NCBI GenBank assembly: GCA_031732855.1
Contig: JAVMKJ010000110.1
Span: 21,006-85,005 of the forward strand
Direction of reading: 5' to 3'
From: Candidatus Competibacter sp.
Lineage (GTDB): Bacteria > Pseudomonadota > Gammaproteobacteria > Competibacterales > Competibacteraceae
DNA: 64,000 bases
Below, piece by piece: positions 25,980-57,931 of the stretch (position 1 is its first letter; every line of letters begins with the position of its first letter). The translations under genes and the position numbers were made by a program. A model generated the notes under the pieces. That model searched no databases, was not told where the DNA came from, and saw only the letters and a program-made list of their open reading frames with translations.

Positions 25980-26017
25980 TGCCTGTCTCCAAAATACCTT
26001 GAGAGATTTTATAAAAA

Positions 26018-26686: not shown

Positions 26687-26690
26687 TCCC

Positions 26691-36224: not shown

Positions 36225-38642
36225 CTAAGGCAGCCAAGACCACATCTCCACAGTCACAAAGCGCACCAGCCGATGGGTGAAGGCCACCGCCAGCGGTTCC
36301 TCCTCCGCGGCAATTTTGGCATAGCCCGTCATCCCCGGTTTCAGTAGACCCTCCGGGTTGGGTACCTCCAGGATGACCTTGACTACCCGGCCGGTAGGGG
36401 TATCGCTGGTAGCGGTGTCAATCTGGGTGACCTTGCCGGTAAAGTAGCGCTGGGAATAGGCCCATGGCTTGAGCCGGGCGCCAGCGCCCAGCGCCACGAA
36501 GGGTAAATCCGCTTCCGGCACGCTGATCTCGGTCCGCAACACTCGATCATCCTGCACGGTGGTGAACAAATCGCTCTCTTCAAGATACTTGCCGGTCAGA
36601 TTCCGCAACTTCAGGTCGGTCAGCCGTCCATCGATCGGCATGATCAACCGGGTGCGGGCCAACTGTTCCTGATCCAGCACCAGTTGTGCCTTGAGACGCT
36701 CCAGTTCGGCCCGCGCCGCATCGATATCCTGGGGATAGGGACCGGCCCTGACCAGATCGAGATTGGCCTGCTGTTTCTGCACCTGCTGGCGATCCACCTC
36801 CAGCTTGCTTTCCGTCGCCTCAAACTGTTGCTCCGACGTGAAGCCGCGCCGCAACAACTCCCGTTGCCGGGTCAATTCGCTGCGCTGAAACTTCTCCTCG
36901 GCCACGGCGACCTGGAGTTCGCGATCGGCGATGGTCACTTCCTCCGGACGTGGAGTGTTGAGCAGTTTATCCAGGTTGGCCTGTTGGCGGTCGATGGCCG
37001 CCCGGGTAATCGCAACCTGCTGCTCCTGACGATAGGATGACTGGCGAGCGATCGGGACACCGGCCTGCAGCCAGTCCCCCCCTTCATAGAACACTTGCTC
37101 CACGATGCCCGAAGTCTGGGCGTACAATTCCCGACTCTGAATCGGCATCAACTCAAAGGAACCACCGGTTTCGTAGGGATAAGGCAAGGCCCCGACCAAG
37201 ATCGCGAGAACCAGCAGAAGCGGTGCCGTCCACCGCCGGGTTTGAGCCGGGAGCGCGGCTACTGGTTCGCTCGCCAGCGCAGGGGTGACTGGTCGTCCGG
37301 CCTTGCTCCTCGCCGCCGCCGGCCGCGACCGATAACGGGCCTGACGCTCGGCGGTCCGCTTGCGAAATGCTCGCAGGAGGCTCCACCCCGCCCAAGTCAG
37401 CAAAATGAGGAACAGAGCGATACCGGTACCGCTGAAATGAAGACGCAGCCAATCGCCAATCAGATAAAGCGTCAACCCAAACAGCGCCAGAAAGTAGACG
37501 CAGACCGCCAGGGCATAGGCTACAAAAGCGGAGCGTCGACCACGCTCATCTTCCCTTACGGAACCTCGGCGGAACAGGGCGCGAATGGCCTGGAGACGTA
37601 GATTGGGAGTATCCAGATAAGCCGTCAGCCATCGGTAACCATCGCCCGCGCCCAAGGGATTGCTGCTAATCACGAACATGATCGTCGTCATCAGCATCAG
37701 GCTCAGCCAGAAGAACGGCAGCCGGGTACCGGTATCGCGACTCAGCAACCAGCCCAGCACACTAAGGCCGAACAACGCGATTTTGACCAAGGTGGGGGTT
37801 GCCAGCACCCAAAGCACCTGGTTTCGCGACAATCGATCGAGACCGTCCAGTTCGACATGAAAGCGTGGCAGGACACCAAACAACAAGAAAACGCCAACGC
37901 CCTCGACCCGTCCCCCCAATGCGATATTGACTACACCCTCCAGCCAATGGCTCAGGAAATTGACTATCATCAAATTGATCAGCAGATGCAGAAGGATATG
38001 CTGAAGAGGAGTGACAGGTCCCCAAAAATAACTCAGATCGGTTTTCAGATGCGCGGCGTTGTACATCAGCGCCACCAGTGCCAGTCCAAAACCGAGCGGT
38101 AACAGATAGATCAAGGATGCCAGCGGACGAATCAACCGCGCCAGGAAATCCATGAGCGCGGTCGCTTTCACCAAACGCCGGTAATAAGAGGGAGTACGCT
38201 TGCCGGGCTCCCGCCCGCCAGGCTTGAGCGCATCGAGCAAGGCCAGCCAGGCATCGTCGGCTTCGGCGCCAGGAAAATGCCGGTTCGCTTCAGGTGATCG
38301 GGACGGTTCGGACGGTTCGGACGGTTCCGGCGCTTCATCCATACTTGCCGCCGTTGCCGGTGAGGTTTTCGGAGTATCCGCCAGCAACCCCCAACCTGAA
38401 AGACTGGTCAGGAACTTGTCGAGATAGGCAGGTGTGAGGCGTTGCTGGTAATGTTGTTGAAAGGCCTGCAGCAGGACCTCTGGCGCGGCGCGACCATCGA
38501 GTCGGGTAATGAGGAAATATTCCTTCTCGCCGAACTCGAAGGTTTCGTTCCAGACCGGATCGCGGATGACGTAGACCGTCCCCTGCTCGCGGTTGTCGCA
38601 GGTGATGACCAGATCATCCCGCAGCTTGGGAATGCTTGACAC
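36225..38642 (-). CDS. Fusion protein: PqqD-like N-terminal domain + polytopic M50(site-2-protease)-like membrane domain lacking HExxH + C-terminal HlyD-type membrane-fusion domain
   Basis: 805 aa with a GTG start 3 nt after the upstream stop. The N-terminus is SIPKLRDDLVITCDNREQGTVYVIRDPVWNETFEFGEKEYFLITRLDGR. A Pro/Ser/Glu linker is followed by ~7 hydrophobic helices carrying HILLH and NPLGAGDGY. The C-terminal ~330 aa show lipoyl-like hairpin, long coiled coil and beta-barrel features typical of HlyD adaptors. Confidence 0.6.
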   Translation of the reverse strand: MSSIPKLRDDLVITCDNREQGTVYVIRDPVWNETFEFGEKEYFLITRLDGRAAPEVLLQAFQQHYQQRLTPAYLDKFLTSLSGWGLLADTPKTSPATAASMDEAPEPSEPSEPSRSPEANRHFPGAEADDAWLALLDALKPGGREPGKRTPSYYRRLVKATALMDFLARLIRPLASLIYLLPLGFGLALVALMYNAAHLKTDLSYFWGPVTPLQHILLHLLINLMIVNFLSHWLEGVVNIALGGRVEGVGVFLLFGVLPRFHVELDGLDRLSRNQVLWVLATPTLVKIALFGLSVLGWLLSRDTGTRLPFFWLSLMLMTTIMFVISSNPLGAGDGYRWLTAYLDTPNLRLQAIRALFRRGSVREDERGRRSAFVAYALAVCVYFLALFGLTLYLIGDWLRLHFSGTGIALFLILLTWAGWSLLRAFRKRTAERQARYRSRPAAARSKAGRPVTPALASEPVAALPAQTRRWTAPLLLVLAILVGALPYPYETGGSFELMPIQSRELYAQTSGIVEQVFYEGGDWLQAGVPIARQSSYRQEQQVAITRAAIDRQQANLDKLLNTPRPEEVTIADRELQVAVAEEKFQRSELTRQRELLRRGFTSEQQFEATESKLEVDRQQVQKQQANLDLVRAGPYPQDIDAARAELERLKAQLVLDQEQLARTRLIMPIDGRLTDLKLRNLTGKYLEESDLFTTVQDDRVLRTEISVPEADLPFVALGAGARLKPWAYSQRYFTGKVTQIDTATSDTPTGRVVKVILEVPNPEGLLKPGMTGYAKIAAEEEPLAVAFTHRLVRFVTVEMWSWLP

Positions 38643-38645
38643 GGC

Positions 38646-40139
38646 TTAACGGCGACCCAGCCAGATTTCCAGGCCACCCTGGGGATTATCCTCGTAACGC
38701 CACTGGTCCCCGCGGCGGACGGCCACCCGGGGGCCGAAGGGATTGGCGGTACCGAGAAAAAAACCATGCGGCGTGGAGACCAGAGTGCGAAGCCCATAGT
38801 TGTAGGGATTTCCGAAGCCCTGGCGGTTGACCGGCAACCAATTTTCACCGTCGCTGCTGCGCCACAACTCGAATCCGCCCTGCCGCGCGACGATGTTTTC
38901 CACCCCGATCAATTCGTAGAGACGGCTAACCCTCGGGGACCGTCGTTCCAAATCGGCATACCGCAGCGTGTTGCTCCAGTCCATGGTGCCGGCGTAGAGC
39001 CAACCATCGTGGACACCCATCCGCCACAGATAGGCATTGAAGAAATTGCCAAAACCGGCGCCGAGCCCGCTCAAGGGACGCTTGAAACCCTGGACCGTAT
39101 CCCGGGCGTTACCGACGATGAGATCCCAGGAACCGTCGCCCCGAACCCGGAGTATTTCCGCGCTGGCCGGGCCGATCTTGTGGGTGTAATCGTAGCCGCC
39201 ATTTTGAATGCCGGTGCCGAGATAGAGCGCACCCCGAAAAACCTGCATGCTGGCGACCAGCTGATTCAGTGACCCGCGCCCGGCACCGCCTTCGAGCACC
39301 TTTTCCCAGCGGTACGGCGGTCGATCCTCGGCAGCGGTACGCCACAACTGAAAACCCTGGTTATTGAGGGTTCCGGCATAGAGACGGTCCTCAAATACCG
39401 CCATCTCGAAGATGGTCAGATTACCAGGATCGCCGAAGCCCGGTTCGTTGACCAGGATCCAGTCCCCCCGGACGGGATCGCGGGTGGCGTAGATTTCAGG
39501 CACCCGAGAAGTATTGGGATTGCCTTGGGCAGCGCCGGTAGGCGCGATAAACAATTGCCCCTTGAAAGGCACCAAGGCTCGCAGACTGGTGACTGGCTGA
39601 CCGCCGATCCTGCCCAACCGGCCGACCACCTCGAAAGTCGCACCATCGCGGCAGCGCAGCAGTAGCGGGCCATCGCCGTTGGCCCGCGACCAGTTACTGG
39701 TATACAAAGCAGGTTCGGGGTCGCTGGCGCTCTGGTAAATCACCATCCCCCGATAACCCAGATCGCGGCTCATCGTGCCGCCGTGATTGCCCACCACCAG
39801 CGGCGCCCGATAGACCCGCGTCCAGGCAGCTTGCACGGGATGGTACTTCCAAATTTCGGCGCGGGCCTGCAGGGTTTCGAACTCCTCGGACAGCAACTTG
39901 TGGGGACACTCCACCGGCCAGACACCGATATCGATGCCAAGCCGTTCCTTGATCAGGCAGAAATTGGCCCGGGTCGTGCCGACATACAGGGCATCCCGGT
40001 ACCAAGCCATGCAATGAGCATAGGCGTTGTTGCCATCACCGAAACCGTTGGCGCAAATCTTGTAAAAATCCTGAAAACGCAGGCCAGGCTCGGGGGAAGG
40101 ATAAAAACGGTTACCTGCAAGTCCGATGGTGGCGATCAT
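38646..40139 (-). CDS. Beta-propeller repeat protein, paralogue 1 (497 aa, cytoplasmic by sequence)
   Basis: Repeated blades of the form GFG(D/N)..N .. LY(V/A/L)GT .. GF(Q/E)LWR. Examples are NGFGDGNN..LYVGT, GFGDPGN..LYAGTLNNQGFQLWRT, GFGNFFN..LYAGT and GGFELWRSSDGENW..GFGNPYN..FFLGT. No signal peptide. The ATG overlaps the upstream stop (ATGA). Confidence 0.6.
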   Translation of the reverse strand: MIATIGLAGNRFYPSPEPGLRFQDFYKICANGFGDGNNAYAHCMAWYRDALYVGTTRANFCLIKERLGIDIGVWPVECPHKLLSEEFETLQARAEIWKYHPVQAAWTRVYRAPLVVGNHGGTMSRDLGYRGMVIYQSASDPEPALYTSNWSRANGDGPLLLRCRDGATFEVVGRLGRIGGQPVTSLRALVPFKGQLFIAPTGAAQGNPNTSRVPEIYATRDPVRGDWILVNEPGFGDPGNLTIFEMAVFEDRLYAGTLNNQGFQLWRTAAEDRPPYRWEKVLEGGAGRGSLNQLVASMQVFRGALYLGTGIQNGGYDYTHKIGPASAEILRVRGDGSWDLIVGNARDTVQGFKRPLSGLGAGFGNFFNAYLWRMGVHDGWLYAGTMDWSNTLRYADLERRSPRVSRLYELIGVENIVARQGGFELWRSSDGENWLPVNRQGFGNPYNYGLRTLVSTPHGFFLGTANPFGPRVAVRRGDQWRYEDNPQGGLEIWLGRR

Positions 40140-40588
40140 CGAGGCGGGAACAAAGGATTAGGTAGGTCGCAATCAATCGGCTTGGGTAGTCCCAAGGATT
40201 TTCCGGCTTCCTCAAAAAGGGCGAGTTCCTCGCGGGTCACGGCCAACACCGCTTCCAGCCAGGTGACCCGGTACCGTAGCTCGCGACAGCGCTGGTCGAT
40301 CTCTTCCAGGGTGCTGGACCCCGGATCAAAGACCTTGTTGAAATCGAACTCGGGCGGCTGCATGTCGAGCAACTGACTCAATTGCTCGGCCGTAACCCTC
40401 GGAACGGAGGCGGGCGCCGGCGGGGATAACGTCTCCAATAAGCCATCCGCCATGGTGGATTCCGGTTCTTCCGCCCGGACAGGACCCGCGCCGGCTTCAT
40501 CGCCGGCCGGAGCGGTGGTGAAACCAAAACGTCCCCGGGCGCGCAGACGCTCCAAGGCCGACAGTCGTTTCTCTACGGCGGGGTCCAT
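40136..40588 (-). CDS. Low-complexity acidic protein with C-terminal amphipathic/coiled-coil helix (150 aa)
   Basis: MDPAVEKRLSALERLRARGRFGF.., then a Pro/Ala/Glu-rich middle, then ..EEIDQRCRELRYRVTWLEAVLAVTREELALFEEAGK. It is intercalated between sulfotransferase-like 1 and propeller 1. No known motif. Confidence 0.45.
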   Translation of the reverse strand: MDPAVEKRLSALERLRARGRFGFTTAPAGDEAGAGPVRAEEPESTMADGLLETLSPPAPASVPRVTAEQLSQLLDMQPPEFDFNKVFDPGSSTLEEIDQRCRELRYRVTWLEAVLAVTREELALFEEAGKSLGLPKPIDCDLPNPLFPPR

Positions 40589-40631
40589 TTACAGTTCCAT
40601 GAATAAAGACATAAGGCGGCATTCAATTGGA

Positions 40632-41549
40632 TCAAACATAGCCGAGCCGTTCGGCCAGTTGCAGGGTTTGCGGATTGAACCCCCGACCGTCGGACCGCCA
40701 AGGCAATAATCCAACCAAGCTGCTGGCGGTGATACGGCCGGGGCGGAAGCGGGGATCCTTGAGAAAGTTGATATCGTTGCCAAGATGCGCTCCGAAAGGC
40801 CCGAGGGAGGCATAGGGCGACGCCTCCGGATGCAGCATGGCTTCCATCGCCTCCGGGCTATCGGCCACCCCCAACCAGGTGGCGCACATTCGCAGATGCG
40901 ACTCTGGATCGTTCAGCAAGTCCTCGCCCCGGATCGTCCGCTGCCGCTCCCAGGGAATATCGGCCAGAAACGCCAGAATATGGCTCTGCGTCCGGCACCA
41001 AGTGACCTGAGGGTCCAGAGTGGGGGGCAAGGTGCTGTAGTCATAAGCGTTTTCCATCGCGGCCAGCAACGGATTCAGACGCAACAACGATTCCCCCTGG
41101 GTACGCGGGTGCCGGACTAAATGGATGTAGCAGGCTTCGGGAAACGTTTCGGCGATACGCCGCAGATAGCGCGGGCTGGCGCAATAGACCGGGCTCTTGT
41201 CCACGATGCGTAAGGGAGACACCCGGATGGCTAACTCCCGATAAACTTCACCGGTGGTACGGGAAAGCCGGCGCAGGATCCAACGACGCGCCAGGTCGAT
41301 GCTGGCCAGGGTTTGCTCTCCGGCATAGATCTGGGCGATCGCCCGCAGCAATCCGTGCATCATGAACTGGCGCTGGCCGGTCAGGCGCAGCCACAACCGC
41401 CGCATATCAGGTTCGATGAACAGATTGAGTTCCGGTACTCCGTAGTGGGCCGGATGCTGGCCCAGCATGGCGCAGATCACCGAGGTGAAGGAACGCGGCG
41501 AGCCGAGAATGAACAGCGGCGCCGATGCAGTGGTTTTTGACGCATTCAC
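40632..41549 (-). CDS. Sulfotransferase-like protein, paralogue 1
   Basis: 5'-PSB-like loop ILGSPRSFTS and 3'-PB-like IHLVRHPRTQGES. It is paralogous to 42809-43693 and 46123-47007. The start was set at the GTG at 41549, which overlaps the upstream stop (GTGA). The listed TTG at 41564 is the alternative. Confidence 0.6.
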   Translation of the reverse strand: MNASKTTASAPLFILGSPRSFTSVICAMLGQHPAHYGVPELNLFIEPDMRRLWLRLTGQRQFMMHGLLRAIAQIYAGEQTLASIDLARRWILRRLSRTTGEVYRELAIRVSPLRIVDKSPVYCASPRYLRRIAETFPEACYIHLVRHPRTQGESLLRLNPLLAAMENAYDYSTLPPTLDPQVTWCRTQSHILAFLADIPWERQRTIRGEDLLNDPESHLRMCATWLGVADSPEAMEAMLHPEASPYASLGPFGAHLGNDINFLKDPRFRPGRITASSLVGLLPWRSDGRGFNPQTLQLAERLGYV

Positions 41550-42808
41550 AGAGACAACCGCCAAACCGTCAGTCCGGGCGGCAGGGAATCAGTGCCAGGT
41601 CCCGCGGCGGTGGAAATCGCCGCGCCAGGTTCCGCAATATCGGGGTCCGCCGCGCTAAAACGCGCCGTGGTACCGGTGCAAGCCAGGAGGTGATCGCCCA
41701 GATGGATCAACCCCAGCAGCGGCTGGGCAGCTTCGACAAGCAGCCCCGGCCATTCCCGGGGCTCAAACTGTTCCCCGTCGCTACTGGCCCACAACTGCTG
41801 GCGAATCGGTTCCCCGGCTTCGGGCAAGGTGCCGGCCGCAATATACAGGGTACCGCGATGGCTGAAAAGACCCAGAAGGTTAGCGCGAGCGGGATCGCCG
41901 AGACCGGACCCAAGCGAGGCCAGCGGCACCTTGAGACCCTGTGGGGTGAAACGCACTGCACCCGCCAGGATTTCCCAACGATCATCCTGGTCCACCCGTA
42001 ACAAATCCACTCCCAATGGCCTGGCGTTGGCGGCGGTCTGCCCGGTCCGACCGGCGGCCAGACAGAGTTTATCGTTCCAAACCGTCAGCGCGAGGATCTC
42101 GCGGTTGCCGGTATGGCGCTCGGCGCCATCGCGCAGCACGCAATGCCAATCCTCTGCCATGCCCTCCGGGGTCAGCCCGGCCCACCAGAGTTGAAAGCCT
42201 CGCTCATCGTTGGCCACCGCCGCGTAAAGCCGCCCCTGCCATGCGATCAGGTGGGTGATCATGACATGGGCGGAATCGCCAAATGGGGACTCAACCATCG
42301 GTCGCCATCTTTCCCAAGCGGGACCTTCATTCCACAGCAGGGCAGGCGCCCTGCCGCTCGCCGCGTCACCGGCCACCGCCACGAAGAGTCGACCCTGGCA
42401 ACCCAGCAATGCGGTCACCGGGCCGTAGCCGCCGGGGAATTCGGCCACCGGCAGAAAGCACTCTCCGGTATCGCTCCAGGCCAGCGCCACACCATGGTCA
42501 TGAAAGGCATTGGTGAACAGCCGAGGACGATTTCCAGCCGCAATGGCGAAGGTCAAACCCGGGAGGAAGGGTGACCTCGCCGGTTCGGCAAGAATCGAGG
42601 CGACTTCACCTCTCACGGTTGGATATACCGCCCGCCAGTACGGTTGATCGATCCCGCGCCGGACTACCTTAACACCGGCGGGCATCCGGGTGGCGAGATG
42701 GAACGCGCCGTCAAACTCCATTCCGGCGAGAGCAGTCACCGCGGTCGACCCCGCGCCACGGGTTAAACATTCGATGGCATGAAACCAGTCGGATGGAACG
42801 CCGGACAT
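41546..42808 (-). CDS. Beta-propeller repeat protein, paralogue 2 (420 aa)
   Basis: Same blade pattern as paralogue 1 (RLFVAVAGD, RLYAAVANDERGFQLWWA, KLCLAAGRTG, TLYIAAGT, QLWASSDGEQFEP). Its ATG directly follows the stop of sulfotransferase-like 2 (TGAATG). Confidence 0.55.
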   Translation of the reverse strand: MSGVPSDWFHAIECLTRGAGSTAVTALAGMEFDGAFHLATRMPAGVKVVRRGIDQPYWRAVYPTVRGEVASILAEPARSPFLPGLTFAIAAGNRPRLFTNAFHDHGVALAWSDTGECFLPVAEFPGGYGPVTALLGCQGRLFVAVAGDAASGRAPALLWNEGPAWERWRPMVESPFGDSAHVMITHLIAWQGRLYAAVANDERGFQLWWAGLTPEGMAEDWHCVLRDGAERHTGNREILALTVWNDKLCLAAGRTGQTAANARPLGVDLLRVDQDDRWEILAGAVRFTPQGLKVPLASLGSGLGDPARANLLGLFSHRGTLYIAAGTLPEAGEPIRQQLWASSDGEQFEPREWPGLLVEAAQPLLGLIHLGDHLLACTGTTARFSAADPDIAEPGAAISTAAGPGTDSLPPGLTVWRLSL

Positions 42809-43693
42809 TCAACCGTACCCCATCTGTCTGGCCAACTCGCCGACCGCCTGCGTCAGTTCGGGATCCGGAATCTGGGCTAGCAGCGGATCCTCACGCAGGG
42901 GCGGCAAGGTCAATTCGGGGCGCCGCAGAGTCGGCGACAGCAAAAACTTGCGATCATCGCCCCAGCGGGCATTGACCGGTCCCGGCCTAGCAAAGGGTGA
43001 ATGCTCGGGGTGGCGCATCGCCTCAATCGCATCGGCATCGTCCCGAATCCCCAGCCACTGGGCGATCTGCGGCAAATAGCATTCATCTTGGGTCAGCAGC
43101 AATTCCCCCCGCACGCTCGCGCACTGACCCTCCGGCAACACCGAAGCGAAATCCAGAATGGCGCTGTGGTGGTGATACCAAAGCTTCAACTTCTGCTGCA
43201 ACCATTTGCCTTGCTCGGGTGGTGGCTCCTCGCGCTGGTCCAGGAGGGCATGGGCCACCGCCAGCGGGTGAGTAGTTACATGCAGGAAATTCGCTTGGGG
43301 CACCGCCTTGTAGGCCCGGATCAGAAAGCCCCATTGGACCGAACTGGTGGTGCTCTTGTCTACCAGAATCCGGGGCGCCACCGCAGCGGCCAGATGAGCG
43401 ATTATCCGAGCGATGCTCCAGTCGCGCCGGTCCGCCAGCCAGCTCCAGGCCCGGCGGGCGCTAGCCTCGCTCTGCTCGCCTTCGTGCAATTGCGCCAAGG
43501 CACGCACCAGACCGTGGGTAGCTTGGGGCTGGTCCTGGCGGTGGGTGTGATAATCGTGCCACTGCGTCACGGTATCGGCGACAAACAGGTTAAGCTCCGG
43601 CAAACCGTAAAGTTGCGGGTGCTGGCCCAGCATGGCGCCGACCAGTGAAGACAGCCAGTGCGAGGCGCCGAGAACAATGATCGCGTTAGCCAT
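42809..43693 (-). CDS. Sulfotransferase-like protein, paralogue 2 (PAPS-binding motifs degenerate)
   Basis: 294 aa from the ATG at 43693. The listed ORF extends to 44083 but would then overlap the esterase gene. It shares MLGQHP..PELNLF..HGLVRALAQLHEGEQ..DKS..EAMRHPEHSP with the paralogues. However, it has GASHWLSS and VTTHPLAVAHA where the others have PRSF(T/S)S and RHPR..G.S. Confidence 0.55.
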   Translation of the reverse strand: MANAIIVLGASHWLSSLVGAMLGQHPQLYGLPELNLFVADTVTQWHDYHTHRQDQPQATHGLVRALAQLHEGEQSEASARRAWSWLADRRDWSIARIIAHLAAAVAPRILVDKSTTSSVQWGFLIRAYKAVPQANFLHVTTHPLAVAHALLDQREEPPPEQGKWLQQKLKLWYHHHSAILDFASVLPEGQCASVRGELLLTQDECYLPQIAQWLGIRDDADAIEAMRHPEHSPFARPGPVNARWGDDRKFLLSPTLRRPELTLPPLREDPLLAQIPDPELTQAVGELARQMGYG

Positions 43694-44720
43694 CGGGGAC
43701 AAGATTCCGGCGCGATTCAGGGTTGGCGTCCGGCGAACCAGGCATGCGTGAAGCACCGAGCGTATCGAAGAAACGCCACATCTCGCGGCTAGCGGAAATC
43801 GAGTGGCTGGAGTACTCATTCCGCCCCCAGCGATCACTACGTTGGCCACCTGGCCAAGTGTGCCCGCCGCCATCGATGGTGACCAGCACGACGGGACCAC
43901 CCCTGCGGCAACTGAACTGCTCGATGTTGGCATCGCCAATCCTGGTATCCCTACCCTGCCCCTGACATTGGTGGTATTGCCGCAGCCAGTCGATGGTATC
44001 CGGTACCGAACGATGGGGCACCCCAACGATTGAACGGACACCGATTCCACCCTCGAAGGGTGCGTTCTGATCCGCAAGGCCATGAAAGTGGATCACTGGA
44101 ATCGGACGCGCGGGGTTGCATCGTTCGGTCATGAGGGTACCGGCTACCGGTGCGATGGCGCTAATTCGGTCGGACAGATCGCACGCCAGCCGGTAGGCCA
44201 TCATGGCGCCGTTGGAGATCCCCGTGGCGTAAATCCGATTGGCATCGATCCGGAACTGATTCGATACCTGATCGATGATTGCTTTGGTGAAGCCGACATC
44301 GTCCACGTCATTACGCTGGGCGATGCCGCAACAGAGACCGGCGTTCCAGGTAAAGCGGTTGCCTTCGGGATTGCGTCCGGTACCGTTGGGATAGACCACG
44401 ATAAAACTCTTCTCTTCGGCCAGTTCGTTCATGCCGGTCAGCAACGGCATTCTCTCGGCATTGCCCAGACCACCGTGAAATACCAGGATCAGCGGCACGG
44501 CGCGGTCAGGATTATAGTTGCGAGGCACGTAGATCAAATAACTGCGCGGCAACCTTTCATAGGGCAAGCTCACTTGTTGGAGCACGCCTTTCTGAATGCT
44601 TCCCAGAGTCGCCGGTCGGGCCGGGCCAGGCGCGACGGTATTGTCGTCACCGGCGTAGCATCCCGTCATCAGGCCGAAACCGACCAGCCCACAAAGCAGC
44701 CATTCAAACATCTGGCGCAT
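43686..44720 (-). CDS. Secreted lipoprotein esterase of the PHB-depolymerase / LpqC (COG3509-like) family
   Basis: Signal peptide with lipobox-like LMTGC. The body shows YLIYVPRNYNPDRAVPLILVFHGG..FIVVYPNG..WNAGLCCG..DDVGF..IYATGISNGAMMAYRLAC, with the nucleophile elbow G-x-S-x-G. Confidence 0.7.
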   Translation of the reverse strand: MRQMFEWLLCGLVGFGLMTGCYAGDDNTVAPGPARPATLGSIQKGVLQQVSLPYERLPRSYLIYVPRNYNPDRAVPLILVFHGGLGNAERMPLLTGMNELAEEKSFIVVYPNGTGRNPEGNRFTWNAGLCCGIAQRNDVDDVGFTKAIIDQVSNQFRIDANRIYATGISNGAMMAYRLACDLSDRISAIAPVAGTLMTERCNPARPIPVIHFHGLADQNAPFEGGIGVRSIVGVPHRSVPDTIDWLRQYHQCQGQGRDTRIGDANIEQFSCRRGGPVVLVTIDGGGHTWPGGQRSDRWGRNEYSSHSISASREMWRFFDTLGASRMPGSPDANPESRRNLVPDG

Positions 44721-44764
44721 GCTTTAAAGAATCCTCGTGGAAGTCTCTCCAGCGAACATGGCTG

Positions 44765-46126
44765 CTATCTCCCGAGCCACACCGCGCATCCGCCAGCACC
44801 GGCGGCCATGCTCGCGCCTTGTCGTCGATAGCGCCTGGCGATTTCCTGGTGGTTCGAACTGCCTACAAACAACCCCGCCGGCGTGGAGAGTAAGGTTTGG
44901 ACACCGATTTGGAAAGGGTCGCCAAACCCGGTGGCAGCCACCGCCTGCCACTGATCGCCGTCCTCGCTGGCCCACAATTGAAAACCACCCTGAAGCGGCT
45001 GGCCCGTCAGGGCGCACTCGAAAGATGCCCAGTGATGGGTGCCAACGTACAGACAACCATCATGGGCCACCATGCTCCACAGTACGGAATTATAGAAATC
45101 GTCGAAGCCCGGTCCCCGGACCGCAAAGGGCACTTTCAAACCGGTTGAAGAAAAGCGGGGTTCGCCCACCACCAATTCCCAGCGGTCATCGGCGTAAACG
45201 CGCAACAGTTCGGCGGCGGCGGGACCGATGTCATTGGCTGAATCGTAACCCAGTCCCGGCAGTCCCGTCGTCACATACAAAGCGCCATGGAAAACCGTCA
45301 GGGCCGGCACCAAGGCGTTGAGATTGTAGCGCCCGGCGCCGTCCCGGAGCACCAGATGCCAACGATAGGGCGGCTTGCCCCGGGTGCTGGTCTTCCAGAG
45401 TTGGAAGCCGCGTTCAGGATTGCCGGTTGCTGCGTATAAATGGTTGGCGAAACTTGCCAAGGCGGTAATGGCGCGGTTGGATGGATCACCAAACCCCGGT
45501 TCCATGGCCGGTTGCCAAACGCCGTTCACCGGATCGTCAGTCACATAAACCATGGGATCGCCACTGAAATTATGATCGAACTGTTGCTCATTCACCGCGC
45601 CGGTCGGAACGATGAACAGTTTGCGACCATGGCCAAGCAGGGTGCGGAAGGATAGCAATCGTCCGCGATCCAAATCTATTAGTGGCACCGCCTCAAAGCA
45701 CTCACCGTCTAGGGAACGCAGTAAATCCGCGCCCCAATGACAGATTGTGCCGACATAAAGCGCGGGCGTGGGATCGGAACGGCCTTGGAACACCGTCATC
45801 GCGCGAAAGCCGCGATAGCGCGGCACGGCGCTGGTGCTGTGCTGGGCGGGGGCACGACGCCGCAGCACGTCACGGGCGAAGGCGCGGCTGTCGGGCTCGG
45901 TCAGCGGCGAGACAAAAACCGTATTCCAAACCGCTCGAAGCGGGTCGTAGCGCAGAATACGAGCCCGATCCTCGGGACTGGCGCCACGAGGATGAGTCAC
46001 CCCAACGTACAAGGCGTCCTGGAAATAGGCCATGGACTGCGCCACCCGGCTGCGTGGATTGCCCAGACCTCCCCTGCCAATTAACTGGAATCGCTGGGCG
46101 TTCAACATCGCGGCTTCATCCGTCAT
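44765..46126 (-). CDS. Beta-propeller repeat protein, paralogue 3 (453 aa)
   Basis: Blades: LYVGVTHP, LYVGTICH, LFIVPTGA, GFGDPSN..LYAATGNPERGFQLWKTS, LYVTTGLPG, CLYVGTHH, GGFQLWASEDGDQWQ..GFGDPFQ..LFVGSSNH. The ATG overlaps the stop of sulfotransferase-like 3 (ATGA). Confidence 0.6.
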   Translation of the reverse strand: MTDEAAMLNAQRFQLIGRGGLGNPRSRVAQSMAYFQDALYVGVTHPRGASPEDRARILRYDPLRAVWNTVFVSPLTEPDSRAFARDVLRRRAPAQHSTSAVPRYRGFRAMTVFQGRSDPTPALYVGTICHWGADLLRSLDGECFEAVPLIDLDRGRLLSFRTLLGHGRKLFIVPTGAVNEQQFDHNFSGDPMVYVTDDPVNGVWQPAMEPGFGDPSNRAITALASFANHLYAATGNPERGFQLWKTSTRGKPPYRWHLVLRDGAGRYNLNALVPALTVFHGALYVTTGLPGLGYDSANDIGPAAAELLRVYADDRWELVVGEPRFSSTGLKVPFAVRGPGFDDFYNSVLWSMVAHDGCLYVGTHHWASFECALTGQPLQGGFQLWASEDGDQWQAVAATGFGDPFQIGVQTLLSTPAGLFVGSSNHQEIARRYRRQGASMAAGAGGCAVWLGR

Positions 46127-47007
46127 TGGTAACCGAACTCCCGGGCCAGCTTCAGGGTCGGACGGGAAAAATAACTACCGGGACGCCAATCCAGTTCTTC
46201 CTCCAAACGGGGTTGCTCCTGGGCGCGGGACGGACGCAGGCGCGGATCCTTGAGAAAATTGGGATCGTTACCCATCTGAGCATTGGCCGGCCCCAGACAG
46301 GCATAGGGCGAGGTCTCCGGATGCTTCATCGCCTCGATCGCCGCTTGATCGGTCCGCACCCCCAGCCATTCCGCGATCTGCGGCAGATAAATATCAAGCG
46401 CCGATAACAGATCCTCACCCTTGATCCGCATGCACTGACCGAAAGGCAGAGTGCGGGTGAATGCCACGATGTTATGGTGGGCGACATACCAAAGCCGCTC
46501 GGGGTCGACCCGGTCGGGATCGGCTGGACCGTTCCATTCGTGATTGTGCCGCACCAGTTCCAGAATGGATTTGCCGGTCGCGCGGGGATGACGGGACAGA
46601 TGCAGATAACTGGCACTGGGGCAAATGCCGTGCATGGTCCGCAGGACACGCGGACTCATCACCGTCGCCGGACTTTTGTCGATTAGAATCCGGGGCGCGA
46701 CTCGATCGGCCAGGTAGGTGAACACCCGCCCCGTGGCCCATTCCAGACGCGCGTCGAGCCAGTGCTGTGCGCGGCGCACTGTAGCCTCGGTCTGCTCGCC
46801 GTCGTGCAACTGCGCCAAGGCGCGCAACAAGCCATGCACCGCAAAGGGGCGAGTACGCTGGTGCCGCTGCAGCAGGGCGCCCAGGTTATCTTCCAGGAAC
46901 AGATTCAGCTCCGGCATTCCGTACATATCCGGGTGTTGGCCCAACATGCCGCAAACCACCGAGGAAAAGGAACGAAGTGGACAGAGAATAATGAGAGGAT
47001 CAGGCAT
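46123..47007 (-). CDS. Sulfotransferase-like protein, paralogue 3
   Basis: 294 aa. 5'-PSB-like CPLRSFSS and 3'-PB-like LHLSRHPRATGKS. It shares conserved blocks with the two paralogues. Confidence 0.6.
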   Translation of the reverse strand: MPDPLIILCPLRSFSSVVCGMLGQHPDMYGMPELNLFLEDNLGALLQRHQRTRPFAVHGLLRALAQLHDGEQTEATVRRAQHWLDARLEWATGRVFTYLADRVAPRILIDKSPATVMSPRVLRTMHGICPSASYLHLSRHPRATGKSILELVRHNHEWNGPADPDRVDPERLWYVAHHNIVAFTRTLPFGQCMRIKGEDLLSALDIYLPQIAEWLGVRTDQAAIEAMKHPETSPYACLGPANAQMGNDPNFLKDPRLRPSRAQEQPRLEEELDWRPGSYFSRPTLKLAREFGYQ

Positions 47008-47899
47008 CGTGCATTCCGCATGGCGGCTGCGCCAGATTGGTCAGGAAATCTCGCCAGACCCGAATCAACAGTTCCGGCTGGGACACGGGAAAAAAATGGC
47101 CGGCCTTGGGCACCAGTTCGACTCGGGTCTGCGGCCACAGGGCCCGCAGACCATACGCGCTGGGCAACGCCTGGGAATACTCGCCGTACATCGCCAGGGT
47201 CGGCAGGCGCAGGGTCTGCAGTGCGACCAGCGACAGACCGTCCTCGGCCAGTTCCCGCCGGGCGGTGGTCACTTCCAGCAGGCGTAACCAGTGACGCGCC
47301 GCCCGCTGGCCGACCGGCCCGGTGAACGGCAAATGCAGGTCGGGCAACCGCTGCACCCGCTCGGGAGCACCCAGAGAAAGCTTGGCCATCTCTTCCAGCA
47401 AACGGTGGCTGAACAGGGGATCGCTCTCATCCAGTTGGATACCGAGTCTTTCCAAAAACGGCTGGATTCGCCGTGTATAGGCTGGGTTGCGAGGCAGGAG
47501 CCCCTGCAGCGTGGGAATTCGAGTATCCAACAGGGTCAAACTGCGCACCCACTGGGGCTGGCGCAGGGCAAAATGCAACGCCACCAAGCCGCCGAAACTA
47601 TGCCCGATCAGATGCAGGGTGGTGACACCCGTCTGATGCAGGAGATGCCACAAATCTTCGGCCATGATCCGGGGTGAGTATCCGTTGACGCTCATGGTGC
47701 TGCGCCCGTGGCCGCGCAAGTCGAACAGCAGAGTACGATGGCTTGCAGCGAAGGCTGGTGCCAGACGGGCGTACCAGAACGCCAGATTGGCAGCCAGACC
47801 GTGCACCATCACCACATCATCTCCGGGCGCGCCCGGGTCCGGACGTCGATCCATCCGCAGATAATGGAGGTTGATCCCTGGCAAACGAACGACCGGCAC
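47000..47899 (-). CDS. Alpha/beta-fold hydrolase
   Basis: GTG start. VVMVHGLAANLAFWY (oxyanion HG), nucleophile elbow LIGHSFGG, and the C-terminal His region GHFFP. Confidence 0.7.
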   Translation of the reverse strand: MPVVRLPGINLHYLRMDRRPDPGAPGDDVVMVHGLAANLAFWYARLAPAFAASHRTLLFDLRGHGRSTMSVNGYSPRIMAEDLWHLLHQTGVTTLHLIGHSFGGLVALHFALRQPQWVRSLTLLDTRIPTLQGLLPRNPAYTRRIQPFLERLGIQLDESDPLFSHRLLEEMAKLSLGAPERVQRLPDLHLPFTGPVGQRAARHWLRLLEVTTARRELAEDGLSLVALQTLRLPTLAMYGEYSQALPSAYGLRALWPQTRVELVPKAGHFFPVSQPELLIRVWRDFLTNLAQPPCGMHDA

Positions 47900-47901
47900 G
47901 A

Positions 47902-49503
47902 CTATTCCATATAGCCCAACATATGCAACTGCTCGAGAATCCTGGCTTTTTCAGCCGCGCTGGCTTCAGTGGTCTTGCTGGTCCCACCCGCGACCGGCAG
48001 GGTTGGATCACCCAAGCGAACCGGATGGGAAATCCGTTGTTCGGCGGTGAAGAAAGCCTCTGGTACCCTCCCTTCCAAGTCTCCGGGAATATCCAGGCCC
48101 AAGCTGTATAGCAGGGTGGCCGCCACGTCCACGATGTCGCGGGGCTCGCCATGCTGGCCGGCGACGATACCCGGACCGGCAGCCAGGAAAATGCCCTCGG
48201 GATGATGGGTACCGACTGGATAGGGACGCGGCAACACCACTGGTTCCAGATTTTTTATCGAGACAAAACCGTGATCGCGCAAGGTCAACAACAGATCGGG
48301 AGCCTGACTCATGGATGGCCCAGGAAACACGTCCTCGCGGGTGCGGATGGCGCGGATGATGCGCTCGCCGCTTGCAGGATCGCGCAAGGCTTCCAGATCG
48401 ACCATCAGTTTGGCGCGGAAGGCCGGGTACTCGGCGGCGGCGATGCCGGCTTCACCAGGATGGCGGGCGACGCGGATCGTAATGCCGTTGCTGGAAGGCG
48501 TATGGCAATAGGCCACGGTATTCTTCCAGTCGAGATGGGTGAAAAAGGCGCTGGCCTCGCGCCGGGCAAATTCCGCGCTGCCGTCGGCCAGCTTCCAGAA
48601 CAAATAGCCTTTTTCATGCAGATAGCGGTTGATCCGCACCACCTCGTTACTGTGGGTGAAACCATGATCGGAGGCCACGAACACTTGCGCCGCGGGACCG
48701 GCCAGCGCCACCAGTCGCTCCAGATACTGGTCCAACTGGCGGAAATAGCGCAGACATAGCGCCCGCATCCGCCGTTCCCAGGGCGAGGGGTCGCTGTTAA
48801 GCAAGGCCGGCTCCAGGAAGCGCCAAGCCTGATGCTGGATCTTGTCGGTGCCATCGAACATCACTGCCATCAAGTCCGGCCGTTCGCTGGCCAGCAGGTG
48901 GCTGGCCACCCGAAACCACTGCTCCTCGCGGGGCAGATGATATCCGACCCAGGCTTCGCACTCCGCTTCGGAAAGATCGTCCAGCGACTGATTTTCCCGC
49001 TCGAAATCCCAGGCCAGCTCCTTGGGGTTGAAGCCATCCAGGGCACGCAAACGTTCGTAAAGCGACTCGGGATAGCTGTTGCGGCGCAGGTGCTTCCAGG
49101 GAACGAAACCGGGCAACAGAAACCCGTTGACCGGCCGGGGCGGCGCGGTAATCGGGAAGTTGAGCGCCGCCACGCGCCGCTGTTGGCGGCTGGCAATGGC
49201 CCAGATCGTCTCCACCCGGATATCACGGGCATCGTAGAGAGTCGTAAAACCCTCGCCATTCTGTTCGGCCACCCGCAGAAAGTCGAAAACTCCATGCTGG
49301 CCCGGCCAGCGCCCGGTCATCAGCGAGACCCAAGCGGGCGGAGTGAGGGGGTTGGGCGTGGAGCGCAGCACCGCCCGTGTCCCGCTCGCCATGAAAGACC
49401 TGAGAAACGGCATTACGATCTCGCCGTCGGGGTCGGGTTGGATCATTGCATCCAGCAGGGTGAAGGTGGCACCATCCAGACCGATGAACAGGGTCCGGGT
49501 CAT
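47902..49503 (-). CDS. Alkaline-phosphatase-superfamily enzyme (type I phosphodiesterase / nucleotide pyrophosphatase, COG3379-like)
   Basis: MTRTLFIGLDGATF (metal-binding DG), NPLTPPAWVSLMTG (nucleophile Thr context) and ASDHGF. 533 aa. The ATG overlaps the carrier-protein stop (ATGA at 49500-49503). Confidence 0.65.
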   Translation of the reverse strand: MTRTLFIGLDGATFTLLDAMIQPDPDGEIVMPFLRSFMASGTRAVLRSTPNPLTPPAWVSLMTGRWPGQHGVFDFLRVAEQNGEGFTTLYDARDIRVETIWAIASRQQRRVAALNFPITAPPRPVNGFLLPGFVPWKHLRRNSYPESLYERLRALDGFNPKELAWDFERENQSLDDLSEAECEAWVGYHLPREEQWFRVASHLLASERPDLMAVMFDGTDKIQHQAWRFLEPALLNSDPSPWERRMRALCLRYFRQLDQYLERLVALAGPAAQVFVASDHGFTHSNEVVRINRYLHEKGYLFWKLADGSAEFARREASAFFTHLDWKNTVAYCHTPSSNGITIRVARHPGEAGIAAAEYPAFRAKLMVDLEALRDPASGERIIRAIRTREDVFPGPSMSQAPDLLLTLRDHGFVSIKNLEPVVLPRPYPVGTHHPEGIFLAAGPGIVAGQHGEPRDIVDVAATLLYSLGLDIPGDLEGRVPEAFFTAEQRISHPVRLGDPTLPVAGGTSKTTEASAAEKARILEQLHMLGYME

Positions 49504-49787
49504 ACGCCGTCACCTCGCTGCAATTTTCGCTCGACAAAGACGACCAGTTCGCCGATGGTGAGATCGCTGACATACTGATCGCCTTGCATCAGCAATCCCT
49601 CGAAACCCAGGCGGCCCCGCCCAAAGTGCTCCTCGATCGACACGAGGAGATGGACGATATCGATGGAACTGAAACCCAGATCAGTGACCAACCGGGTTTC
49701 CAGGGTAATCGCCTCATCCAATGTGATCTCCCAGTCCCGAATCGAATCTTCAATCAGCGTAATGATGCTGAATGCAACTCTAAGCAT
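49500..49787 (-). CDS. Phosphopantetheine-type carrier protein (ACP/PCP-like, 95 aa)
   Basis: From the ATG at 49787: MLRVAFSIITLIEDSIRDWEI..LVTDLGFSSIDIVHLLVSIEEHFG. This has the four-helix carrier-protein layout, with the Ser in a (D/G)(F/L)(D/S)S(I/L)D context. The listed ORF could extend to the ATG at 49943, adding a Cys/Arg-rich 52-aa extension that I consider less likely. Confidence 0.55.
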   Translation of the reverse strand: MLRVAFSIITLIEDSIRDWEITLDEAITLETRLVTDLGFSSIDIVHLLVSIEEHFGRGRLGFEGLLMQGDQYVSDLTIGELVVFVERKLQRGDGV

Positions 49788-50188
49788 GGTTATTTCCGAC
49801 AACTTGAGGTCTGGACAGGATTTTCTTCTCGCGGGAAAGGCAAGAACCGATGGCGGGGCTCCTTCCAATCGCACTGGATGGCAGTGCACCGTCAGCCTCT
49901 GGCACCTCTCCGTTCCAGCACAGCACGCAAGGTCTCGACGCATTCAAATCTGGACGGTCGAACAGCCGGAAATCTCGCCTCCGTCGCAGATCGCCCAAGA
50001 AAACCTAGCATGGCAGTGCCATTTTGCGAGGTTGCCATGAAAGTACCGGACTTTCATCGTTGGGGGTGTCGATTCCATCGACATGATTGTTAGGCACTCG
50101 CTGGAACTCCGAATCGGTCCTTCACTGTCAATCAGGACTGGCTAGTAACGGGCACGCACGGAGAAACGCTCTTTACACCTATTTCAGC

Positions 50189-50794
50189 CTAGCGCTTTTG
50201 CAGCTTGCCTATTAGTTCCAGTTCCTTGAGTCCCTTGTCCAGGGTTTCTTCCAGCCAGTCGATACGCTTTTCCAACTGGGCACGATAACGACTCAGCATT
50301 TCCGGCGAGAACGTGCTGAAGGGCGTGGAAGATTCACTCGTCATGGCGATGTCGTCGTCGAGAAGGGGGGGCGCGGCCTCGGGCACGGTTTGAGATATCG
50401 GCGGAGAAGGACGGGCCGGCGTTTCCGTTCCTCTATCCAAGGCTGCCCGGAAACGACCGCCGCGTCCCATGCCACCCCCGAAGCCACCCGCCACTCTACC
50501 CTGTTGCCGGCGCTGCGCCAGCATTTCCCTCAACCGGGGGAAGCGTTCCAATACTGCCTGGGGGTCACCGCCACCTTCTCCCATCGGCGGATTCCGGAAC
50601 AGGCCCCGTCCTCCGCCCAACCCACGCCCGTCCAAAGCATTCTCCTCCAGGACCTGCGCCGGCTCCGCAGATTCCAGATCTGGCTTTCTCAGGATCTCTG
50701 GCGATTCCGGCAATGGCGCCTGATCGAGCCGTTGATGCTTTTCCTTTAACGCCTGCAATCGCGCGCGCCGCGCCTGAGCATCGTCTTGAGCCAT
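50189..50794 (-). CDS. Low-complexity Arg/Gly-rich protein with C-terminal coiled-coil helix (201 aa)
   Basis: The ATG at 50794 has a GAGG Shine-Dalgarno 6 nt upstream. The listed GTG at 50845 is the alternative. Sequence: MAQDDAQARRARLQALKEK.., RGG/GGF-rich centre (GRVAGGFGGGMGRGGRFRAAL), and a C-terminal SRYRAQLEKRIDWLEETLDKGLKELELIGKLQKR. Confidence 0.45.
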   Translation of the reverse strand: MAQDDAQARRARLQALKEKHQRLDQAPLPESPEILRKPDLESAEPAQVLEENALDGRGLGGGRGLFRNPPMGEGGGDPQAVLERFPRLREMLAQRRQQGRVAGGFGGGMGRGGRFRAALDRGTETPARPSPPISQTVPEAAPPLLDDDIAMTSESSTPFSTFSPEMLSRYRAQLEKRIDWLEETLDKGLKELELIGKLQKR

Positions 50795-50878
50795 GCTTGC
50801 CTCACTCGGTGAAAAGTGTGAAAAATCGTCGGGTAAACAATACACCCCAGTTATGTTTGACGCGAAGCCACGCGGAAA

Positions 50879-51697: not shown

Positions 51698-51716
51698 GCG
51701 GGGCTGGGAGTTAAAT

Positions 51717-52910: not shown

Positions 52911-53319
52911 AAATACGTTCCTTGCTGCTTGACTTGGCTTGCAATGTAAAGTCAATGCGGATTTTCAGTTGGCCATGCCTGCCATTGCTTACAACTCGAA
53001 CAAAAACTTTTTTATAATAATCCATATGTGAACAAATACAAACAAAGGTCAATTTCAAGAGACCCAATCATGGAACAGCCAGTTTGCTGTATTATGCAAC
53101 CAACAGTTTCAAGAGGGGTTTGAGCAGGCTTTTTCTTCAGAGGCGGGCATTATGACGAACTGAAAGAATGTTGCGGCAGAGCGAAGTAAATTACTCTCCT
53201 GGTAGGAAACCGAAGGCCAAGGAAGACTTTCCCCCTTGACCGGAGGAGAGGAAACAGAACGCCTCCTTCTCCCGAGTTGCCTGCGAGGGTAGATAGGAAA
53301 TTCGGGCACACCCTTCCCC

Positions 53320-54612: not shown

Positions 54613-54618
54613 CGCGGT

Positions 54619-56375: not shown

Positions 56376-56387
56376 CGACGGCTTCCC

Positions 56388-57095: not shown

Positions 57096-57107
57096 GGAGC
57101 TTCTCCC

Positions 57108-57584: not shown

Positions 57585-57931
57585 TCCAAGGCTCCTTTCT
57601 TCCACTCGTAAATGAATCCGATGACCAGGATGCCGAGAAAAACCGCCATCGCCGCGAAACCGAACAGACCGATTTGGTCGAGCACGATCGCCCACGGAAA
57701 CAGGAAGGCGATTTCCAAATCGAAAATGATGAACAGGATGGCCACCAAGTAATAGCGGACATCAAATTTCATCCGGGAATCCTCGAAAGCCTCGAAGCCG
57801 CACTCGTAAGGTGATGTTTTTTCACTGTCGGGGCGGCGAGTGCCGAGGAAATAGCCGAGGCCGATCACGATCACGGCCATCGCGACGGCAATGATCACAA
57901 AAATCAGGACGGGAAGATAATTGGACAGCAT
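57575..57931 (-). CDS. nuoA: NADH-quinone oxidoreductase subunit A
   Basis: 118 aa, three TM helices, PYECGF motif. Confidence 0.93.

Follow-up and report, generated by a model that had tools for sequence, protein, structure and literature searches.

A fusion of an RRE-like domain, a degenerate site-2-protease fold and a periplasmic adaptor as a putative TolC-dependent export component in Candidatus Competibacter

We analysed a 64,000-nt stretch of DNA from Candidatus Competibacter sp. (assembly GCA_031732855.1, contig JAVMKJ010000110.1, positions 21,006 to 85,005 of the forward strand), hereafter the window, and in it a gene whose 805-aa product joins an RRE-like domain, a degenerate site-2-protease (S2P) membrane domain and a periplasmic adaptor. 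At about even odds (0.5), this fusion gene supplies what a TolC-dependent export module, serving the gene's own operon, has in the inner membrane and periplasm. In such a module, the protein would oligomerise like other adaptors into a periplasmic tube contacting a TolC-type channel encoded elsewhere in the genome. The pseudo-protease membrane domain would stand in for the usual ABC, MFS or RND pump, as the point at which the operon product enters the membrane or is received there. The exported product would probably be amphiphilic, a lipid-like or peptide-bearing molecule, possibly sulfated, made by the operon enzymes. Finally, the RRE-like domain might bind a stretch of peptide in a cytoplasmic partner, which could be a carrier protein, the TPR protein or a cargo, thereby coupling synthesis to export. 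The parts of the gene, at their positions in the window, are as follows.

36225..38642, minus strand: fusion gene for the 805-aa RRE-like/pseudo-S2P/periplasmic-adaptor protein (full-length homologues, AlphaFold2 (AF2) model)
38373..38642, minus strand: aa 1-90, PqqD/RRE-like winged-helix domain, predicted to be cytoplasmic (PDB profile search, Foldseek)
38193..38372, minus strand: aa 91-150, linker rich in Pro, Ser and Glu, predicted to be disordered (predicted local distance difference test score (pLDDT) <50 at residues 92-148)
37293..38192, minus strand: aa 151-450, S2P/M50-fold membrane domain, transmembrane (TM) helices TM1-TM6 plus a re-entrant beta hairpin, predicted to be non-catalytic
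37986..38000, minus strand: aa 215-219, HILLH, 16 residues upstream of SHWLE in the same helix
37938..37952, minus strand: aa 231-235, SHWLE, degenerate HExxH-equivalent site, with which HEFAH of catalytic relatives aligns
37635..37661, minus strand: aa 328-336, NPLGAGDGY, second M50 motif (NxxPxxxxDG) with Asp334 present
37173..37292, minus strand: aa 451-490, basic cytoplasmic loop and TM7, up to the conserved LPYPYETGG junction (hydropathy, Lys/Arg counts)
36225..37172, minus strand: aa 491-805, periplasmic adaptor with lipoyl-like domain, alpha hairpin, beta barrel and C-terminal helix
36834..36869, minus strand: aa 592-603, RLS motif RxxxLxxxxxxS at the hairpin tip, RQRELLRRGFTS (AF2 model, alignment)

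Several observations favour the export reading. As judged from sequence and model, the RLS tip motif and the TolC-like genes found co-operonic with the fusion gene in relatives point to TolC docking. The recurrent neighbours of the family are biosynthetic: acyl carrier proteins (ACPs), short-chain dehydrogenases/reductases (SDRs), polyketide synthase (PKS) KS/NMO proteins, methyltransferases, sulfotransferases, hydrolases and TPR proteins. Finally, no ABC-like neighbour was detected in 67 loci of relatives, polytopic neighbours are all but absent from the degenerate-type ones, and the window has no pump.

The open reading frame (ORF) of the fusion gene is real, and all three modules are supported by profiles and structure models. 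The gene starts with a GTG codon 3 nt past the stop of the upstream gene. Its product is 73-96% identical over the full length to six metagenomic proteins, and the same module order occurs as one ORF of 750-850 aa in >100 distant relatives. Since full-length relatives share the order of parts, the gene is not an assembly artefact. The AF2 model of the 805-aa protein, built on a 51-sequence alignment, has a mean pLDDT of 84.5, and a separate model of aa 1-470 has a pLDDT of 80. The three-module fusion proposed in an initial annotation of this DNA is thus borne out by profiles, alignments, the AF2 model and Foldseek, the profile, alignment and structure-model lines being in agreement. Pfam and NCBIfam hold no model for the N-terminal two-thirds of the protein, and the source annotations of the family clusters are generic (JGI 'multidrug resistance efflux pump', 'putative peptide zinc metalloprotease protein').

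The family was defined by searching 1.84 billion representatives of clusters at 50% identity with a hidden Markov model (HMM) built from the N-terminal half. The search returned 10,375 proteins at E ≤ 1e-3 and 692 at E ≤ 1e-30; as most are 750-850 aa long, this fusion is a common one. When the best 150 family matches are aligned, they divide into a catalytic subfamily (93 members, 73 of them full-length and counted) and a degenerate subfamily (59 full-length members, including the query). At the HExxH position, the catalytic proteins have HE[FL]AH (HEFAH) and the degenerate ones a TVNLxS-type sequence; the next conserved block is YFQPxFY versus G[ILV]xPRF; and the second motif is NPLIKLDGYY versus NPLxxx[D/S/N/A]GY. 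On these sequence signatures, the query belongs to the degenerate subfamily. Residues conserved in this subfamily only are N228 (49/59), R260 (54/59) and, in PYPYETGG, P487 (59/59) and Y488 (56/59); G494 is near-invariant in it. A C-terminal Trp-x-Trp is common to both subfamilies, and in the degenerate one the protein ends in WSWLP (P805 in 57/59; W801 and W803 conserved). The subfamily-specific conservation of N228, R260, PYPYETGG and WSWLP argues for purifying selection for a new function rather than decay.

On profile and model evidence, the C-terminal part of the protein is a periplasmic adaptor of the MacA/EmrA type. It matches Pfam HlyD_D23 (E 5e-13, 49.2 bits; cut-off 30) and HlyD_3 (E 3.6e-9, 37.7 bits; cut-off 22.2), and scores just below the 94.9-bit cut-off of NCBIfam RND_mfp (E 3.8e-25, 88.5 bits). 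Foldseek matched it to MacA, EmrA, AcrA and MexA with E values of 3e-18 to 1e-10 and target TM-scores ≤0.67. Both Pfam matches are above cut-off and, with these structural matches, substantiate the canonical HlyD region described initially. The pLDDT is mostly 86-97 over aa 480-790 and 60-78 at the C-terminus. In the AF2 model, the alpha hairpin has roughly 60 residues per arm and a membrane-proximal domain is lacking. In its long hairpin and the lack of that domain, it resembles adaptors such as EmrA, which work with a membrane partner devoid of periplasmic bulk.

The same model places R592, L596 and S603 so that they flank the tip loop, aa 599-603. Among the degenerate proteins, R is conserved in 52/59, L in 47/59 and S or T in 52/59; conservation in the catalytic subfamily is similar. 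The RxxxLxxxxxxS or 'RLS' motif has been shown experimentally to bind the tip of TolC in MacA, AcrA and HlyD (PMC3391258). The hairpin tip of the fusion protein matches this motif exactly and is a putative TolC-docking site.

The membrane domain was assigned to the S2P/M50 fold by more distant similarities. In the query, the M50 region has no match to Pfam PF02163; homologue P0007 matches this model at E 6.5e-4. Residues 157-428 match NCBIfam daptide_HExxH, the daptide intramembrane metalloprotease, at E 1.3e-12; because the score is 47.6 bits against a cut-off of 300, the match indicates homology and not membership of that equivalog. The region also matches the NCBIfam YydH/LiaK model at E 3e-4. 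The best Foldseek match of the N-terminal-half model in the PDB is SpoIVFB (8vjl_A; probability 1.0, E 0.026, 239 columns), and the query aligns end to end with full-length relatives bearing an intact HEFAH.

Based on these alignments, HEFAH falls on S231-H-W-L-E235 in every case. HILLH, which the initial annotation had read as the HExxH remnant, is thereby ruled out, and that part of the annotation was wrong; the second His of HILLH is Phe in most subfamily members (consensus QHLLFSL). Nor did re-alignment reveal an intact HExxH, the site reading SHWLE. In relatives 73-88% identical to the query, the site reads GRWLQ, SHGLQ, SRLLQ or SQLLQ, SHWLQ also occurs among the closest relatives, and since these residues vary even among the closest relatives, a hidden metal site at SHWLE is not indicated. 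By contrast with HILLH, NPLGAGDGY had been correctly recognised: in the alignments it is the genuine second M50 motif, with P329, G335 and Y336 invariant. Its zinc-ligand Asp (D334) is present in 73/73 catalytic proteins versus 29/59 of the degenerate type. The degenerate, variable HExxH site and the optional Asp agree with the earlier view that the protease module of the query is non-catalytic, as its sequence predicts. The catalytic motif has been lost yet subfamily-specific residues have been kept, which suggests that the module is selected for something else.

The N-terminal domain was identified in a similar manner. Neither Pfam as a whole nor PqqD PF05402, whose cut-off was not reached, matched aa 1-90 of the query; homologue P0007 scored 18.2 bits (E 0.003) against PF05402, below the 23.4-bit cut-off. 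A profile of the whole N-terminal half gave no match among PDB sequences. The isolated 90-aa profile, made from 49 sequences and searched against 177,635 PDB sequences, did: its best three were TfuB1 (E 0.01), PqqD 3g2b (0.014) and TbiB1 (0.14). In the model of aa 1-470, this domain has strands at 12-18, 21-28 and 33-37 and helices at 39-46, 54-65 and 71-83. Foldseek superposed it on TbiB1 with TM-scores of 0.73-0.76 and on TfuB1 with 0.68, at root-mean-square deviations of 2.7-3.6 Å. An N-terminal P-x-L-R-x-D-L strand is common to both subfamilies, R8 and D10 being kept in both. Thus, the modelled fold of aa 1-90 matches that of lasso-peptide RRE/PqqD proteins, and peptide binding is putative. 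The PDB profile, the superpositions and P0007 lend support to the PqqD/RRE-type domain of ~90 aa that had been suggested from sequence patterns. The linker recognised alongside it differs among homologues in sequence and length, and its low pLDDT accords with a predicted disordered segment.

These two domains also raise the possibility of leader processing and export of a peptide made on ribosomes and modified after translation (RiPP), as in YydH or daptide systems: the RRE would bind a leader, the M50 domain would cleave it through non-canonical residues and the adaptor would export the product. The best profiles of the membrane domain are indeed RiPP proteases (daptide_HExxH and YydH/LiaK, at the E values above), the N-terminal domain has the lasso-peptide RRE fold, and the combination of Sulfotransfer_3 with a HlyD-type adaptor recalls RaxX/RaxST/RaxAB. 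For the catalytic subfamily, a protease-exporter of this kind may well hold. For the query we consider it improbable: HExxH is absent and the replacing residues vary even among close relatives, Asp334 is dispensable in the degenerate subfamily, a precursor-peptide gene was not identified in the operon, and the ACP, PKS, SDR, esterase and phosphodiesterase neighbours indicate lipid or polyketide rather than peptide chemistry.

The arrangement of the modules across the membrane was predicted from the model and from charge distribution. Model and hydropathy give seven TM helices, at about aa 161-194, 212-241, 273-304, 308-327, 364-402, 406-430 and 472-486, and the AF2 model has a re-entrant beta hairpin at aa 245-266, after the HExxH-equivalent helix. 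About seven hydrophobic helices had been counted before. With the N-terminus inside, cytoplasmic loops contain 3+6+9 Lys/Arg residues (18) versus 1+1+0 (2) in periplasmic loops. Seven TM helices and this strong positive-inside bias would place the RRE-like domain inside and the adaptor outside. The adaptor is accordingly predicted to be periplasmic, and the former active site to face the cytoplasm, as does the RRE-like domain; a cytoplasmic HlyD part, which the initial annotation had named as a point to check, is not what the Lys/Arg counts predict.

Gene neighbourhoods were compared using 39 loci from species-representative genomes and 52 from metagenomes, in which genes were called, neighbours clustered and cluster representatives annotated. 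Pump and TolC counts were based on the 67 loci with at least three neighbour ORFs (30 degenerate-type and 37 classed as catalytic), within a span of four genes. No ABC-like protein was detected by its motifs within four genes of the fusion gene in any of these 67 loci, which represent several phyla. A neighbour with at least six predicted TM helices occurred in one of the 30 degenerate-type loci. Those unknown neighbours that were examined proved to be radical-SAM enzymes, hydrolases and the like, not pumps. A gene for a PF02321 outer-membrane efflux protein (OEP; TolC-like) was present within four genes in 8/30 degenerate-type and 1/37 catalytic loci, usually 9-72 nt downstream of the fusion gene. 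Given 0/67 loci with an ABC-like neighbour, synteny indicates that the absence of a pump characterises the whole family and is not peculiar to the window.

The window itself gave the same result. Pfam scans of approximately 60 ORFs found no ABC, RND, MFS or OEP family, an HMM of 13 TolC-like neighbour proteins had no match in it at E ≤ 10, and none of its ORFs has both Walker A and LSGGQ; these scans confirm the initial statement that neither an ABC/MFS/RND pump nor a TolC-like gene is present. The only transporter-like genes in the window are murJ and one for a cyclic-nucleotide-gated channel.

The initial annotation had proposed that the protein hands a cargo to a pump encoded elsewhere. In this account, the protein is a conventional adaptor that recruits a remote ABC, MFS or RND pump and TolC, and the RRE-like and pseudo-protease parts deliver the cargo or serve as an anchor. 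In its favour, the adaptor part is of the canonical kind, the window holds no pump, so that a partner could only be encoded at a distance, and characterised adaptors all need an energised inner-membrane transporter (review, PMC8277102). We nevertheless regard this account as rather doubtful. Adaptor genes are normally co-operonic with their pump, yet ABC-like genes accompany 0/67 fusion genes and TolC-like genes 9/67, so the hand-over finds no synteny evidence. In addition, a conserved 7-TM domain with subfamily-specific invariant residues exceeds what a simple anchor needs. That the family is never encoded next to a pump instead makes a new export device possible.

The neighbours that do recur beside degenerate-type fusion genes include a TPR protein (sometimes TPR plus PilZ), S-adenosylmethionine (SAM) methyltransferases, B12-radical-SAM enzymes, SDR pairs, small ACPs, esterases, alpha/beta hydrolases, a phosphodiesterase, Sulfotransfer_3, giant KS/NMO polyketide or polyunsaturated fatty acid (PUFA)-like synthases, and a family of 420-497-aa proteins described below. 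In one locus (L063:8316-9752), the TPR protein just upstream of a degenerate-type fusion gene ends in a PilZ domain, which hints at cyclic di-GMP control of the module.

Among catalytic-type loci, the fusion gene is mostly solitary in Ignavibacteriales and Zixibacteria. Ser/Thr-kinase, histidine-kinase and Omp85 neighbours in these two groups were rejected as partners, being on the opposite strand and part of lineage synteny. In Planctomycetota and Gemmatimonadota, the fusion gene follows a GAF-GAF-HlyD gene. The product of this gene, 645-835 aa, is another adaptor of unusual make-up, bearing sensor domains on the cytoplasmic side; its gene adjoins the fusion gene in L043 (7096-9033) and in L022, L040 and L041, immediately upstream in L040 and one gene away in L043.

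The prominence of TPR proteins bears on a further possibility, in which the protein exports nothing and instead spans the envelope as a scaffold or regulator, organising a synthesis complex or sensing the periplasmic state. The precedent is Alg44 of the alginate secretion complex, which consists of a cytoplasmic PilZ domain, a TM helix and a membrane fusion protein (MFP)-like periplasmic domain and works with a TPR protein but no pump (PMC4436075). No neighbour of the fusion gene is more constant than the TPR proteins, some of which carry PilZ. We judge such a role to be quite unlikely here: the TPR protein of the window has no signal peptide, unlike the periplasmic AlgK; the operon has no glycosyltransferase or polymerase; and the conserved RLS tip and the co-operonic OEP genes indicate TolC docking.

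The operon that the proposed export module would serve lies directly upstream of the fusion gene.

38646..52955, minus strand: co-oriented, tightly packed operon (Pfam, NCBIfam)
38646-40139, 41546-42808 and 44765-46126, minus strand: three paralogues of 420-497 aa with repeated 'GFGDxxN...LYxGT' motifs

Its genes encode, in order, a TPR protein (no signal peptide), a sulfatase-like protein, a 218-aa coiled-coil protein and an ACP-like protein; a type I phosphodiesterase and an alpha/beta hydrolase; and three units of Sulfotransfer_3 plus one of the paralogues, with an esterase gene between units 1 and 2. In the third unit, a gene for a 150-aa coiled-coil protein separates the two genes. The fusion gene is the last of the operon, as annotated from the outset: it is followed by a weak hairpin, a 268-nt AT-rich spacer and der. 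The same gene order occurs in five relatives (L001-L003, L005 and L044, from digester metagenomes and a proteobacterial metagenome-assembled genome), with differing downstream genes. The GC content at third codon positions (GC3) is 0.62-0.74 in the operon versus 0.80-0.90 in its flanks. The lower GC3, together with an order that is kept in relatives with other genes downstream, suggests that the operon is a transferable island.

Further features of the operon were noted. The ACP-like protein, an AP-superfamily phosphodiesterase, the alpha/beta hydrolase (with a weak thioesterase match) and a sulfotransferase are encoded in a row at 46123-49943 on the minus strand; a sulfotransferase next to a thioesterase-like hydrolase is reminiscent of the olefin-forming sulfotransferase-thioesterase pair of CurM/Ols. 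The 150-aa (40136-40588) and 218-aa (50189-50845) proteins, both encoded on the minus strand, have acidic or Pro-rich low-complexity N-terminal parts, and the motif R..[IV].WLE..L occurs in a C-terminal helix of both. For the 150-aa protein, relatives were seen in the closest loci only. The two small coiled-coil proteins were considered as RRE partners throughout the family and rejected: clustering did not find them among the neighbour genes of more distant loci, so they cannot explain a family-wide RRE function. As to its surroundings, nuoA-F are contiguous at 53320-57931 on the minus strand, and the ~16.7-kb operon (36225-52955, same strand) begins at the expected place of nuoG. The genes nuoG-N are not in the window, and the operon has a GC3 of 0.62-0.74 versus 0.80; its differing downstream neighbours in relatives suggest an inserted island.

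Each of the three paralogues has a Sulfotransfer_3 gene upstream, with the 150-aa gene between in the third unit. Their family, here named after its 497-aa member, has >2,500 relatives, many of them 55-65% identical and especially cyanobacterial. Every one is labelled hypothetical; neither Pfam nor NCBIfam has a model of the family, and the PDB contains no relative. In Anthocerotibacter, a gene of this family follows a PUFA/hgl-like PKS, a phosphopantetheinyl transferase, a phosphodiesterase and an alpha/beta hydrolase. The member in Anabaena PCC 7108 is accompanied by genes for two sulfotransferases, for an APS kinase and for an alpha/beta hydrolase. The fusion gene is absent within 10 kb at both of these cyanobacterial loci. 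In a metagenomic locus, L071 (607-2952), the 497-aa-family domain and a C-terminal SAM methyltransferase form one 781-aa ORF; this locus also holds SDRs, an esterase, a TPR protein, a fusion protein and a TolC-like gene.

The paralogues were considered as a secreted cargo and rejected, as they have no signal peptide and their cyanobacterial relatives lie beside PKS and sulfotransferase genes without a fusion gene. The family is more likely an enzyme or scaffold than a cargo. The PKS and sulfotransferase neighbours, the methyltransferase fusion and the cyanobacterial loci without a fusion gene make it look like part of the biosynthetic core for a lipid-like, possibly sulfated product, with the fusion protein an optional add-on.

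Several points weigh against TolC-dependent export by the fusion protein. Neither an energy source for export without a pump nor a cargo is evident; to our knowledge, adaptors do not work without an energised transporter. The pump counts are to be read with their method, ABC detection in the loci having been motif-based and RND/MFS detection a crude count of TM helices. A TolC gene is not nearby in 22/30 degenerate-type loci, the window included, a lack that is only weakly informative because many contigs are short. The operon product is tied to the exporter only circumstantially, given that the 497-aa family also occurs without the fusion gene in cyanobacteria. Finally, the literature searched contained no paper in which HlyD or an RRE is combined with a domain of the M50 or S2P type; the single literature match for the label 'putative peptide zinc metalloprotease' concerned unrelated ASST sulfotransferases.

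The broader proposal, that the degenerate subfamily is a new class of TolC-dependent exporter with a dead S2P fold as its inner-membrane component and RRE-like coupling to the biosynthesis of lipid-like or sulfated products, is put forward tentatively and is less probable than the role proposed for the single gene. If synteny reflects function, a family of >10,000 clusters would add a fourth kind of inner-membrane partner, and a large group of pseudo-proteases would gain its first function. The locus also flags a widely conserved but unannotated biosynthetic set, in which the 497-aa family occurs with sulfotransferases, hydrolases, ACP and PKS.

Elsewhere in the window, two regions were noted. 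Four large plus-strand ORFs (867, 1220, 391 and 611 aa) at 168-10688 have a GC3 of 0.84-0.90 and no Pfam match, and the opposite-strand ORFs there have no match either. At 20634-28557 on the minus strand, a gene for a 1781-aa PilY1-like protein lies with PilX and PilW minor-pilin genes; the GC3 of this region, about 0.6-0.64, is lower than that of the surrounding housekeeping genes.

Tripartite efflux and type I secretion are defined by a pump, an adaptor and TolC. Like the adaptors of these systems (MacA, EmrA, HlyD, AcrA), the fusion protein has lipoyl, alpha-hairpin and beta-barrel parts, in its C-terminal 315 aa, and the RxxxLxxxxxxS tip motif, and some of its relatives have an adjacent TolC-like gene. 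It differs in having a 7-TM S2P fold and a cytoplasmic RRE-like domain where those adaptors have one N-terminal anchor helix or a lipid anchor, in the lack of an adjacent pump gene and of a membrane-proximal domain, and in its WSWLP C-terminus. With S2P/M50 proteases (SpoIVFB, RseP, YydH and the daptide protease), it shares the fold, the helix order, NxxPxxxxDG and the re-entrant beta hairpin after the HExxH helix, and its catalytic relatives retain HEFAH and LDG. In the query's subfamily, however, HExxH is replaced (TVNLxS consensus; SHWLE in the query) and the Asp is optional; in place of the regulatory PDZ or CBS domains, which are missing, there is a fused periplasmic adaptor. The likeness to PqqD and RREs (TbiB1, TfuB1, PqqD) lies in the three-strand, three-helix winged helix and a weak, specific profile similarity; here, by contrast, the domain is tethered to a membrane protein by a disordered linker, and neither a precursor peptide nor a RiPP maturase is evident in the operon.

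Among whole systems, DevBCA-HgdD of heterocystous cyanobacteria exports a PKS-derived lipid by means of a HlyD-type adaptor and a TolC homologue. Loci related to the fusion gene or to the 497-aa family likewise contain hgl/PUFA-like PKS genes; DevBCA differs in having an ABC transporter (DevC/DevA), none being encoded near the fusion genes. Alg44 is alike in architecture, in which respect the two are likened here: it combines a cytoplasmic domain of a ligand-binding type, a membrane segment and an MFP-like domain, with a TPR protein nearby and no pump (PMC4436075). It differs in having one TM helix and PilZ, and in that its partners are a glycosyltransferase and a porin, not TolC. Compared with these systems, each domain of the fusion protein is of a known kind; what is new is that they are combined, and on such a scale, that the pseudo-proteases form a subfamily of their own, and that the link is to TolC with no pump involved.

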